DNA of 64,000 nt from Spirochaetales bacterium (GCA_013044245.1 JABEVK010000020.1:2209-66208); one strand, 5' to 3'; shown: positions 25,104 to 29,815, counted from the stretch's first letter. Numbers and translations: made by a program. The notes: generated by a model from the sequence alone, not told the origin.

Positions 25104-26675
25104 ATGGCCAAAGCCGCGACGCAAAAGTACAATCCTAAGTCCGATCAACCTCTTGGGTGGTTAGATCGCGTCCTCTCGCTTCTGGGTATGGAGCCTGATC
25201 CTGAAAGGGAAAAAAAGGCTCTTTTAAAAGACCTAAAGAACCAACTCAAAAAAGCGCATGGAAAGTTTGTAAAAATGCCCGATCAGGTGGATGTAGGGCT
25301 CGCCAAATTTTTTTATGAGATCTACGGGGTTATTGGCTCGGCTCAGACGTTGCTTCAGAACGCCGCGACCTCGCAAGCCTTAAAAATGATCTTTATTGAG
25401 CAGGTGCTGACGGCCAGCCAAAAGGCCCTGCAAGAAGAGCTGACAGACGTCGGCATTCGCGAACTGGCCAAAACCCTGCCACATGAACAACTTGTTGACC
25501 GCGTTCGCACAAGCCTGGTCGATTACACTGCCGCATTAGAGATCGAGACTCAAAAAAAGATCGATACCCAATACAACCTCTTTTTGACCTTTACCGATTT
25601 TATCACGTTCAATTTCTACTTTTTACTCAAAAAGTTTGATTCGATGCTTCCCGAACGAGACTTTGGGTATCTGCCTCGGTTTGAGCCGATTAACGGCGAG
25701 TACGTGGTAGAAGACCTCAAAGATTTTTTAACTGTAAGCGGACCGCTTTCGGCCTCGGCCGATTGGGATGGCCTTTTTGATGTGCTTCAATCTTACAAGA
25801 ATTTGGAAGTACTCAGTCGCCCTGGTTGGAAGAAGTTTTTATCTTCGCTGGCGACGATTCGGCGTTCCGGCATACTCCTGCAGATTATACAATACATGGG
25901 AAAAGACCCCTACTACCAACCCAAGTCAGAATTTCCCTCGGAACGAATCGTCGAGGCTTATTTAACACAAGTCAAAAATCAAGCGGAATCGGTTTTGGCC
26001 AAAATTACCGAAGAGCGTCGCAACGATAAACTCAACAATTTGATCCAGCAGGTTTTTGGTACCACGGGCATCAGCCGTACTAAGAACTACACCGAAAAAG
26101 CCAATATAGGTTTCTCGAAGAAACGAGTGTCTGGCTACCTCTTTGTTGAGCCGCTGAACTACCTCAAGGCTTTTCTTTTAGATTTTTACAAGCGTGATAT
26201 CCGAGAACTCGTCAACCTCCTGCTTGTCAAAGGTCAATGGATGTCAAACGCGATGGCCCAGCCAATGTCCGAGTCATTTCACAGTCTTATGGAAGTCTCC
26301 GATAACCTATCGACCTTTGATGAATCTTTGGCTGAGGATGCCGAACGCGGGCAAAAACTCAAGGTCCTTCTTACCCGCTCAGATAAAGACCAGAACGCGA
26401 TGATTTCGTTGAAGCAACAGCTAAAAGACATCAACAGCGGGGCCCGCACCATTATCACCGAGGCCGCGACACACTTGGTGATTATTGGCAAGCACATCAA
26501 GATGGCCATTGACGATCATGCGAAAACCAAACATGAACTCATCCTCAACTGGAAGTCGCTTGAGGCATCCACCGATCGCAAACTGCACGAATGGATGACT
26601 GATACCTATAAGCTTATCTATAACTTCGTTCAGCTGATGCAGTTCTTTGTTAAAGAGCGTCCTGCTCAGGAGTAG
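25104..26675 (+). CDS. Hypothetical protein, predicted all-alpha and Lys-rich (523 aa), no recognisable motif
   Basis: Long ORF with coding-like composition. No catalytic or binding motif recognised. Confidence 0.55.
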   Translation: MAKAATQKYNPKSDQPLGWLDRVLSLLGMEPDPEREKKALLKDLKNQLKKAHGKFVKMPDQVDVGLAKFFYEIYGVIGSAQTLLQNAATSQALKMIFIEQVLTASQKALQEELTDVGIRELAKTLPHEQLVDRVRTSLVDYTAALEIETQKKIDTQYNLFLTFTDFITFNFYFLLKKFDSMLPERDFGYLPRFEPINGEYVVEDLKDFLTVSGPLSASADWDGLFDVLQSYKNLEVLSRPGWKKFLSSLATIRRSGILLQIIQYMGKDPYYQPKSEFPSERIVEAYLTQVKNQAESVLAKITEERRNDKLNNLIQQVFGTTGISRTKNYTEKANIGFSKKRVSGYLFVEPLNYLKAFLLDFYKRDIRELVNLLLVKGQWMSNAMAQPMSESFHSLMEVSDNLSTFDESLAEDAERGQKLKVLLTRSDKDQNAMISLKQQLKDINSGARTIITEAATHLVIIGKHIKMAIDDHAKTKHELILNWKSLEASTDRKLHEWMTDTYKLIYNFVQLMQFFVKERPAQE

Positions 26676-27831
26676 TCATAACTGTTCTCTGAAAATTGCG
26701 GGTCAGAATCTGGTGGCCTTCAATCCAGGACAGTTCCAGCTCGGGTTGCTGAAGAGCTTCCCAAATCCGAGGAAAGTTTTTGCCATCAGCCTGGAATCCA
26801 TTGACGGCCGTGACTTGTGCGCCCAGAGCGGGCAGGCCTGTTAGGCCGGGAAGTACTTCGGAAACAATAACTGTCCAGCCGCCTTCAATAAGATAAAGTC
26901 CCAAACCAAAACCATAGGATGCGGTTTTGGAGGCGAGCCACTGTTGGTCTGGTTTGACCAAAAACTCAGGGGACTGAGTCGCCGTTCGTCCCAAAAAGAC
27001 GCACCAGTCGGTGCCCCGAAAAAAACTAAACCCCAGACGTCCTGCGAATGCTCCTTTGGGCTCATTCAAAACGGGAAGAGCCGGCCAGCTTAGCGGCCCC
27101 AGTTGGATTGGGGAACTCGAATACAAAGAAAGGTTCCAGGTATCGCCACCGGGGGCAATCCCCCTGACCGGTATGGGGGCAGAACCTTCAGCGCCTTGTA
27201 GCCGAGCAAAGCTCGAGCCGTTGCCGGTATCCAGCAAAAAGCGAGCTGGTTGACCGGCTAAGTTCCCGTCAAACACTAAGGACGGGCCGGCATCTTGGCG
27301 TTCTATCAGGGAACAAGGCAGGTCGACACCATGAAAACGCGGCTTCTGGAGGCTGATCGTCAGAGTATGGGCAGCTGCTTTCCAGCTCAACCAGTGCTGG
27401 GCCAGAGCATCGGCCCCTAATACTAAGGCGCGAGGGTAGTCCCGACCGGCGTTACGATAACGGCCGACACGCAAGGTTAACTCAGAAAAGGTCGCACCTC
27501 CCAGGGTTACATGATCAAAGGTCAAAGACTGAGAGCCCTGCTGTATTGGTGGCCCGACTAGCCTGAGAAAACGCTGGGCTTCTTCGGAGGGATAAATATA
27601 GCTGAAAGGCGAGCCCGTATCGGCAATTACCAAGAGCTTTTGACCAGAAAGAGTGACAAACCCCGCTGCTAAGTAGGGCGGAGCCCCAGGCTCCCATGTC
27701 AGAGTTAGGCTCTGCGGTTTTGGCTTCACCGGTACCGGCGAAGGTAAGCTCTTAGAGGGGGCAGGATGGCTAACGGTAGCACACGAGCTAGCCAAAAGGG
27801 TAACAAAGAAGGCGGTCAAAAAAAATTTCAT
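26650..27831 (-). CDS. Secreted or lipoprotein aspartic protease with two DTG active-site motifs (tandem retropepsin-like lobes) and a C-terminal PDZ-like domain
   Basis: LLVIADTGSPFSYI and FLLDTGNGSSFARL (two D-T-G motifs ~120 aa apart); C-terminal GLGLYLIEGGWTVIVSEVLPGLTGLPALGAQVTAVNG PDZ-like region. Signal MKFFLTAFFVTLLASSC. The ORF extends to an alternative ATG at 27891. Confidence 0.6.
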   Translation of the reverse strand: MKFFLTAFFVTLLASSCATVSHPAPSKSLPSPVPVKPKPQSLTLTWEPGAPPYLAAGFVTLSGQKLLVIADTGSPFSYIYPSEEAQRFLRLVGPPIQQGSQSLTFDHVTLGGATFSELTLRVGRYRNAGRDYPRALVLGADALAQHWLSWKAAAHTLTISLQKPRFHGVDLPCSLIERQDAGPSLVFDGNLAGQPARFLLDTGNGSSFARLQGAEGSAPIPVRGIAPGGDTWNLSLYSSSPIQLGPLSWPALPVLNEPKGAFAGRLGFSFFRGTDWCVFLGRTATQSPEFLVKPDQQWLASKTASYGFGLGLYLIEGGWTVIVSEVLPGLTGLPALGAQVTAVNGFQADGKNFPRIWEALQQPELELSWIEGHQILTRNFQRTVMTTPEQDAL

Positions 27832-28156
27832 GGAAGACTCATTATAAAAAAAAAGGCGCATCTGGTGTAGATGCGCCACTCGCTTCGTCAAGCCAGGACA
27901 TTGATTTCTGTGCCCCTTGCCTCATCTTGGTTGGCTTTCCGGTCGGTTTCCCTGATTTCTTCTGACGAAATCTTTTGGGTTGCTTGCGCTTGGCCGGAGG
28001 GGCGGTCCGTCGCGGTTGACGGTCGTATTAGGAGCGGGTCCGAGCCGCTCGCTTTTTCTATTGTCATTGCACCTCCCAATTCAAAATTTAATCCCGGTAC
28101 CGAGAATTGTCCAGTGTTTCTTGCTGAATTTTAGGGGCCGTGCTATCCTGGCGCCC

Positions 28157-29815
28157 ATGAATGGCCGTGTTCGTTTTGGAGGCTGGCTCATCAGCCTGCT
28201 TTTGGTGATGGCAACTCCGTTGTTTGCCCAAGAGACGCCCCCCCAAAAGACGTTTCGCTTTACGCGCCTCACCTTGGATGGGGGTTATCGATTTGTGGGG
28301 CGGTACCCGCTTTTGGGCTCCGACTGGAAGGCCAGCGATTGCTGGGCTGTGACCACGGTTCAAGGACAGGTGAAAGAGGTAGATTATTTTCGCCGTGGCG
28401 TCAATGCTCCTGCTCCTAACACCGGCGTGGCTCGAATCGTCGTGACAGAAGACGGCAATTGGGAAATTCGGACCAATGAAAACCCTCAGGGCCTCGTCAT
28501 TGAAGATTGCGACGGAATAGCCGTTCGTCGTCTAAAAAAGGACGCCTCGGGAGCCTTTGTGGCGATGTTTCAGTATGACCGTGCCGGGAACCTCAAAGAT
28601 GATAGCTCGGGGATTAGTGCCTATTTGTGGGTACCCGATAGCCAAGGTCGCCGTGTGCGTTCGATACGCTTAGACAAGAGTGGAGAACGTACCGTTAATA
28701 AAGCCGGTGTAGCAGAAATAGACTTTACCTATGATAACCAGGGTAACCGTTTGACGGCGCAACTTTTAGATATCAACGGCAAACCGATGGCGGAACCTAC
28801 CGGTGTCGCGTCGTTTGCGTGGACTTATGACGAAGCGGGTAACCCGGTCAGCGAGACGAGGCTGAATCTACAGGGTCAGCCGGTGGGTGGCTGGAATGGC
28901 ATTGCCCGCTGGACCAAGGTTTGGGACTCACAGGGCCGTATTCAAGAACAGGATTTTTGGGATGCGCAGGGCCGCCCCATTACTGACAAGACTGGGGTTG
29001 CCCGTTACGTCTGGCAGTACAATGATGCCTTGCATTGGACCAGAGTCTGGCACTACGACACAGAAGGACAATTGACCTTGGATGATCGGGGGGCTGCGAT
29101 GGTCAAGACTCAGTGGTTTGATCAGTCTAATCAAAAAGAACAAGACATTTACGGGCTAGAGATTAACCCGTACTATGCCGCTCTCCCCTCGGTTCAAAAG
29201 TCTGTTTCGGAACGTTATGAGCTGAAAGACGACGTGGACGGAATCGCCGTCAGGCGCTGGACGTACGACCAAGAGGGAAACCCCATCACGTTCAAAACCT
29301 ATAACGCTCAACTTCAGCCGGTTCCTAACCGTCACGGGGTGATGATTGTTCGCCGCCAGTATAATGTACGGGGTCAGCTAACCCAAGAACGTTTTGAATC
29401 AGCTCCCGGACAACTCATGGAGGCCAATAACGGCTTGGCTGGCTACCGTTGGACGTATGACGGCCAGGGACATTTGCTTCGTCAGGATAATCTCGGGCTG
29501 GACGGTCAGTTAAAACTTGACCCTCAAGGAGTAGCCTCCTACCAGTGGACATACGATGAGCGTGGCTTACGGATTAAGCAGAAGAACCTGGGAACTCTCG
29601 GGCAACTGAAAGATGACAACCGGGGAGTCGCGATTTATTTGTGGAAATACGACAAGTTTGGTGATTTGAGCGAAGAAGCCCATGACGGTATCGATGAACG
29701 GCCTACTGTGGATACCTCAGGCGTTTATATCTACCGCTATAGGCCCTCGGCCGGGGGAACGTTGGCTTTGGTGCAGAGTTTTGATCTTAATGGAAACCCA
29801 ATAGGGGGGAATTAA
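28157..29815 (+). CDS. Secreted repeat protein with ~45-aa YD/RHS-like repeats
   Basis: Signal MNGRVRFGGWLISLLLVMATPLFAQ. Recurrent G(V/I)A.Y.W.YD..G unit, e.g. GVASFAWTYDEAGNP, GVARYVWQYNDALHW, GLAGYRWTYDGQGHL, GVASYQWTYDERGLR, GVAIYLWKYDKFGDL. Confidence 0.6.
   Translation: MNGRVRFGGWLISLLLVMATPLFAQETPPQKTFRFTRLTLDGGYRFVGRYPLLGSDWKASDCWAVTTVQGQVKEVDYFRRGVNAPAPNTGVARIVVTEDGNWEIRTNENPQGLVIEDCDGIAVRRLKKDASGAFVAMFQYDRAGNLKDDSSGISAYLWVPDSQGRRVRSIRLDKSGERTVNKAGVAEIDFTYDNQGNRLTAQLLDINGKPMAEPTGVASFAWTYDEAGNPVSETRLNLQGQPVGGWNGIARWTKVWDSQGRIQEQDFWDAQGRPITDKTGVARYVWQYNDALHWTRVWHYDTEGQLTLDDRGAAMVKTQWFDQSNQKEQDIYGLEINPYYAALPSVQKSVSERYELKDDVDGIAVRRWTYDQEGNPITFKTYNAQLQPVPNRHGVMIVRRQYNVRGQLTQERFESAPGQLMEANNGLAGYRWTYDGQGHLLRQDNLGLDGQLKLDPQGVASYQWTYDERGLRIKQKNLGTLGQLKDDNRGVAIYLWKYDKFGDLSEEAHDGIDERPTVDTSGVYIYRYRPSAGGTLALVQSFDLNGNPIGGN

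Follow-up and report, generated by a model that had tools for sequence, protein, structure and literature searches.

Can a single bacterial chain contain both halves of an aspartic protease active site, as pepsin does? The question is raised by a minus-strand gene in a stretch of 64,000 nucleotides from a Spirochaetales bacterium (GCA_013044245.1, JABEVK010000020.1:2209-66208; this whole stretch is referred to as the window). The product of 393 residues, recorded as NNM53522.1 under the name "hypothetical protein", belongs to a Spirochaetales metagenome-assembled genome (MAG). Retropepsins, as outlined in PMC12239564, have a single lobe in each chain, and dimerization creates the catalytic dyad. 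Unlike these homodimeric enzymes, the window protein displays lobes that are covalently joined and that have diverged from each other. We consider it likely that this protein is an exported, lipid-anchored endopeptidase of clan AA, in which two fused lobes constitute a pepsin-like pseudo-dimer with Asp71 and Asp201 as catalytic dyad, followed by a PDZ domain at the C-terminus.

Two lobes, their motifs and the C-terminal domain

An earlier examination of the DNA without database searches (the sequence-only reading) had noticed two DTG motifs in one chain, IADTGSPFS (Asp71) and LLDTGNGSS (Asp201). Both are present; the distance between them, first estimated at about 120 residues, is of 130 residues. 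The family to which the protein belongs is very small, with about a dozen members, and is a sequence orphan. Three close relatives share 68-81% identity with the window protein. Among 1.84 billion cluster representatives, a full HMMER scan detected only three more true relatives (P0005, P0006 and P0008), and profile searches in a set of 5.8 billion sequences gained only P0010 and P0011. Two other candidates, P0007 and P0009, are repeat proteins with unrelated Pfam content and were rejected. All members whose source is named belong to Spirochaetales MAGs.

The multi-alignment reveals that both D-[TS]-[GA] motifs are conserved in 9 of 9 sequences, which display 25 to 100% identity to the window protein, and this conservation argues that the two DTG are not chance tripeptides. 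Asp71 and Thr72 are invariant and Gly73 is replaced by Ala in P0004 only, while Asp201 and Gly203 are invariant in the nine sequences and Thr202 is replaced by Ser (DSG) in P0011. After the first Asp, the sequence LVLG is invariant in the family and aligns with ILG in ASPRV1 and in a Candida pepsin. In the second lobe, Gly267 is invariant and preceded by Leu, Val, Phe or Ile, and this motif aligns with LGMDF of the Bacteroides fragilis protein of PDB entry 9iy9. The conservation of both catalytic motifs, each followed by a hydrophobic-hydrophobic-Gly motif, supports the structural reading as two lobes. The protease gene is under strong purifying selection: the ratio of non-synonymous to synonymous substitution rates (dN/dS) is comprised between 0.10 and 0.15 for the five pairs of orthologues that allowed its calculation, with dS ranging from 0.68 to saturated, and the comparison of the window gene with three orthologues gives this range.

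The Pfam family Asp_protease_2 (PF13650) matches the whole protein in two stretches, with 24.4 bits for a gathering score of 24.3 (E 4.9e-5); the threshold is barely reached, and the best stretch corresponds to residues 189-270. When scanned singly against this model, both lobes give weak matches (E 0.045 for the N-terminal lobe and 0.011 for the C-terminal lobe). The N-terminal lobe of the homologue P0005 is recognized with E 0.0013, and six of the nine family members match the model at E<=1. The pepsin model of Pfam (PF00026) does not match the window protein at E<=10, and NCBIfam contains no match for this protein or for its distant homologues. The profile of the C-terminal lobe recovers 9iy9 from the PDB with E 3.2e-4, through both DTG regions of 9iy9.

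Structure prediction was realized with AlphaFold2 (AF2). From the alignment of nine sequences, the best model has a predicted local distance difference test score (pLDDT) of 73.8 and a predicted template modelling score (pTM) of 0.69. The N-terminal lobe is modelled as beta-rich with pLDDT values of 77-90, and the predicted fold is the beta-barrel of the acid proteases. In a Foldseek search of the PDB with this model, 9iy9 comes first (E 1.5e-9), followed by fungal, plasmodial and mammalian pepsins and by single-chain or tethered HIV-1 protease dimers (template modelling score of 0.53-0.58 on the target). The superposition on 9iy9 and on pepsins spans 208-218 residues and includes the N-terminal lobe. 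The tandem of retropepsin-sized lobes, which the sequence-only reading had interpreted as a pseudo-dimer, is thus supported by the catalytic motifs, the Gly motifs and the fold matches. From these data we infer that Asp71 and Asp201 are apposed around one cleft.

A Gly-rich, PDZ-like segment of about 90 residues had also been announced for the C-terminus. The last ~88 residues contain 11 Gly and are predicted to adopt a PDZ fold, a beta-sandwich whose peptide groove is flanked by a helix. Their YGFGL loop, with the residues Tyr306-Gly307-Phe308 as YGF, aligns with YGFSL of Tiam1 and YGFFL of NHERF3. Phe308 is invariant and Gly307 is replaced by Pro (F-P-F) in four distant homologues, so that the loop is only partly conserved. 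PDZ domains represent 9 of the 14 and 8 of the 9 sub-threshold PDB matches obtained with two different profiles, a signal that is weak but consistent; in these matches, YGFGL falls on the carboxylate-binding loop. In fold, the closest PDZ domains are those of the C-terminal-processing proteases.

At the other end of the protein, the N-terminus MKFFLTAFFVTLLASSC terminates, as judged by eye, in the lipobox-like sequence LLASS-C17. A Cys equivalent to Cys17 was recognized by eye in all seven full-length homologues, including P0002-P0005, P0010 and P0011 (AGC, FSC, AAC), in agreement with the lipoprotein-like character proposed initially. Residues 1-36 have pLDDT values below 50 in the AF2 model, and residues 18-40 are predicted to be disordered and to tether the protease to its lipid anchor. 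The protein is probably a membrane-anchored aspartic protease, with lipidation predicted from the lipobox-like sequence.

In the proposed mechanism, the two lobes of ~125 residues, each with a D-T-G motif and a psi-loop, would fold against each other as a pseudo-dimer, and Asp71 and Asp201 would form the catalytic dyad without homodimerization. The PDZ domain would most likely capture envelope proteins by their C-terminus or by an exposed strand. It could deliver the captured proteins to the active-site cleft, or gate this cleft, as in the Ctp, Deg and RseP proteases.

Contrary evidence and alternative explanations

Several results weigh against a catalytically active, two-lobed protease with a PDZ domain. 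The orthologue P0004 (locus L002, 6001..7188), which is 68% identical to the window protein, has DTA in the first lobe and keeps DTG in the second, and the change from DTG to DTA is associated with a loss of activity in some pepsin homologues. The profile of the N-terminal lobe has no significant sequence match of its own (best E 0.53); its sub-threshold matches are a Candida pepsin and 9iy9. The likeness between the two lobes is restricted to 21 residues around DTG (hhalign P 0.003, probability 10%). In pepsin, the similarity of the two lobes is reported to be likewise limited to the Asp region (PMC2761423). The other four of the five AF2 models have pLDDT values of 42-60 only, and AF2 predictions from four close sequences reached only 41. 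The sequence-only reading had suggested Pfam for both parts of the protein; the protease family was found, at its limit, and the PDZ models give no significant match to the window protein. When C-terminal segments were compared with the Pfam PDZ models, one of eight matched PF00595, with E 0.24. Finally, the gene neighbourhood was rejected as a functional clue since synteny is lost in the homologues with 25-29% identity.

A first alternative is a protein with the same fold that would be a non-catalytic pseudo-protease. Such a protein, of binding or inhibitor type, would use its cleft and its PDZ domain only for ligands, like TAXI, Bla g 2 and the basic 7S globulin. We regard this explanation as unlikely, because the two Asp, the two Thr/Ser and the two Gly of the psi-loops persist at only 25% identity, which is hard to explain without catalysis, whereas those residues have been lost in the known pseudo-proteases.

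Another explanation starts from the adjacent gene, which encodes a secreted RHS/YD-repeat protein and is transcribed divergently: the protease could be dedicated to the processing or maturation of this protein, and both genes would then work as a single functional unit. The two genes are placed head-to-head at a distance of ~325 bp, and the same arrangement exists in L002. However, the pairing is observed only in the close group, the homologues with 25-29% identity adjoining unrelated genes, and RHS proteins are generally self-cleaving; a dedicated role of this kind is highly improbable. As for a homodimeric protein with only one DTG in a protease fold, the other DTG being a chance tripeptide in an unrelated domain, the sub-threshold matches of the N-terminal lobe and the weak lobe-to-lobe similarity go in its direction, but the conservation of both motifs across the family leaves it scarcely any likelihood. 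The fused-lobe aspartic protease is the reading that we retain.

Gene extent, upstream element and neighbours

The list of open reading frames (ORFs) contains a minus-strand ORF at 26650..27891, with 413 residues when counted from a TTG codon. In the alignment, the internal ATG at 27831 corresponds to the start of all full-length homologues and gives a product of 393 residues. The TTG at 27891 was rejected as a start, since the homologues begin at MK and a terminator-like hairpin is located inside the 60-nt TTG extension. The starts of the homologues and this hairpin with its T-run define the real coding sequence (CDS) listed in Table 1; from the 393-413 residues given by the sequence-only reading, the lower value is thus retained and the upper one abandoned.

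Table 1. Features of the protease gene and of its product (positions counted in the window).
Feature	Position	Strand	Evidence
CDS, 393-aa protein, stop codon included	26650..27831	(-)	ORF list, homologue starts, checked translation, dN/dS
Signal peptide, lipobox-like LASS-C (Cys17)	27781..27831	(-)	Inspection of translation; predicted lipoprotein anchor
Pro/Ser/Lys-rich linker, residues 18-40	27712..27780	(-)	Translation; low pLDDT; poor conservation in alignment
N-terminal retropepsin-like lobe, residues 41-165	27337..27711	(-)	Pfam, AF2 model, superposition
First catalytic motif D71-T72-G73, in IADTGSPFS	27613..27621	(-)	Translation
First psi-loop motif V137-L138-G139, within LVLGADAL	27415..27423	(-)	Translation
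C-terminal retropepsin-like lobe, residues 168-294	26950..27330	(-)	Pfam, profile match to 9iy9
Second catalytic motif D201-T202-G203, in LLDTGNGSS	27223..27231	(-)	Translation
Second hydrophobic-hydrophobic-Gly motif R265-L266-G267	27031..27039	(-)	Translation
PDZ-like domain, residues 296-383	26683..26946	(-)	
YGFGL, putative carboxylate-binding (GLGF-type) loop	26902..26916	(-)	Translation; alignment to PDZ sequences

An element of ~235 nt (27846..28082, minus strand) is located between the RHS-repeat and protease genes. Its identity to two orthologous loci amounts to 94% and 90%, against 81% and 67% for the adjoining protease CDS. The element contains a promoter-like site, a Shine-Dalgarno sequence and a 59-codon ORF (28067..27888), and it is closed by a strong intrinsic terminator 14 nt before the protease ATG. 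In the 59-codon ORF, dS values are of 0.07-0.18 as against 0.68 to >2 in the protease CDS, and dN/dS is comprised between 0.4 and 1.0, which indicates a constraint on the nucleotides and not on a peptide. This ORF is unlikely to be a protein gene, its synonymous sites being as conserved as the non-synonymous ones. The element folds somewhat better than shuffled sequences (z -2.56), one compensatory pair was detected in the four sequences, and Rfam contains no match at E<=1. The element probably acts either in cis, as a leader of the protease gene, or as a small RNA.

A perfect TATAAT (27840..27845, minus strand) is found directly after the T-run of the terminator, 9 nt before the protease ATG. 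This hexamer is kept in three of the four orthologous loci with a variable spacing to the ATG, and no Shine-Dalgarno sequence is visible here. Synthesis of the protease may depend on read-through of the terminator or on a transcript that is nearly leaderless.

The divergent neighbour (~28157..29815, plus strand) is indeed the secreted YD-like repeat protein that had been noticed from the sequence: it matches the Pfam family RHS_repeat with E 5.9e-13 and has a signal-peptide-like start. This secreted protein of ~552 residues consists almost wholly of RHS/YD repeats and is far shorter than typical Rhs toxins; no evident toxin tip or Rhs core was found among its Pfam matches. On the other side, the protease gene and a convergent DUF5312 gene (25104..26675, plus strand) share 26 bp at their 3' ends (26650..26675), and the orthologous loci L001, L002 and L016 have this overlap too. 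The synteny, which comprises DUF5312, aminotransferase, RHS-repeat and DUF218 genes, is observed only among the orthologues with 68-81% identity. The neighbours of the homologues with 25-29% identity are a Fer4-like gene and a GH3 gene, a thioredoxin-like gene, and a DNA_alkylation gene.

The same layout in other bacteria and its origin

The lobe-lobe-PDZ architecture is not unique to the window protein. Searches for homologues with the same domain order yielded a protein of Prevotella nigrescens (WP_004367449.1, annotated as "aspartyl protease family protein") with two DTG lobes and a PDZ domain (PF00595, E 0.0023, below the gathering score), together with two metagenomic ORFs. The first (L004, 2791-4083), from an uncultured bacterium, encodes 431 residues with a lipobox-like start, DTG, DSG and a PDZ_6 domain (Pfam, E 9e-8); the second (L011, 1498-2691) shows the same layout by inspection. 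The sequence-only reading had held that this architecture is not commonly described in bacteria. No relevant publication was found on retropepsin with PDZ, tandem retropepsin domains, Asp_protease_2 with PDZ, or 9IY9. The window protein is a divergent addition to an existing, uncharacterised kind of protease. A metagenomic ORF of 420 residues (L015, 953..2215, plus strand) also displays the layout and has lost both Asp motifs (ADLYGG, FELGNV), so that this ORF looks like a pseudo-protease form of the architecture. In Acidisarcina, WP_161557696.1 contains tandem lobes without PDZ.

The Prevotella, L004 and L011 proteins resemble the window protein by the order of the domains, the size (397-431 residues), the N-terminal signal or lipobox-like sequence, the DTG of the first lobe, the DTG or DSG of the second and the C-terminal PDZ domain. 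The best PDB sequence match of the L004 PDZ domain is the Tiam1 PDZ, as for the window family. In contrast, Pfam recognizes clearly the first lobe of this group (E 1e-10 to 1e-20) and its PDZ domain, whereas in the window protein the lobes are borderline and the PDZ negative. No full-length homology between the two sets was detectable with hhalign (probability of 1.9% with a single sequence and of 14.6% with a profile of two sequences). Homology to these Bacteroidota-type proteins was not retained, the matches being non-significant and out of register (the C-terminal lobe of the window protein on their N-terminal lobe). Consequently, the shared layout may reflect either common descent or convergence.

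The protein of 9iy9, released on 2025-08-06 as "putative endopeptidase"/"Exported protein", has 420 residues and two DTG lobes that begin at about residue 150, with 15-16% identity to the window protein. In its Parabacteroides homologue (L003, 253..1572, plus strand), the two DTG lobes are preceded by an N-terminal domain of helical appearance, as judged by inspection, and no PDZ was detected in L003. These two proteins possess a helical-looking N-terminal domain of ~150 residues instead of a PDZ domain, which indicates that the accessory domain of the single-chain proteases is variable.

With respect to known systems, the lobes of the pepsin family (MEROPS A1) comprise ~165 residues, whereas those of the window protein comprise ~125 and are accompanied by a predicted lipoprotein signal and a PDZ domain, with no evident propeptide. 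The window protein would be pepsin-like in its working, yet it is not a member of A1. The homodimeric retropepsin-like proteases Rickettsia APRc and Pseudomonas RloA-C and RimB, which are exported or envelope-associated, share with it Asp_protease_2 and the motif set (PMC4140852, PMC12239564, PMC11957791). The engineered tethered or single-chain HIV-1 protease dimers (such as 1hvc, 4ep2 and 3ka2) are artificial and consist of identical halves without extra domains. In CtpA/CtpB/Prc, DegP/DegS and RseP, the PDZ domain is combined with serine or metallo catalysis, whereas in the window protein it is combined with an aspartic module.

It has long been proposed that pepsin originated from a retropepsin-like half by duplication and fusion (PMC2761423). 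In the spirochaete family, a single-lobe retropepsin-like gene could have been duplicated and fused in a separate event, independent of the origins of pepsin, of 9iy9 and of the lobe-lobe-PDZ proteins of Bacteroidota. The absence of detectable full-length homology to the other tandems and the confinement of the family to a few Spirochaetales MAGs are compatible with such an origin, which we propose tentatively and hold to be rather doubtful. If it is true, the family would be a natural replicate of the event proposed for the origin of pepsin, at the stage of small lobes, with a PDZ domain recruited convergently.

The practical value of the window protein is modest, that of a candidate for biochemical characterisation rather than of a surprise. 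Natural proteases in which retropepsin-sized lobes are joined in a single chain are living instances of the intermediate proposed for pepsin. To the few bacterial examples, the window protein adds a very divergent spirochaete lineage, and the lobe-lobe-PDZ architecture spans distant phyla. If the PDZ-guided aspartic protease is confirmed, it would represent a new catalytic class among the PDZ-bearing proteases of the envelope.

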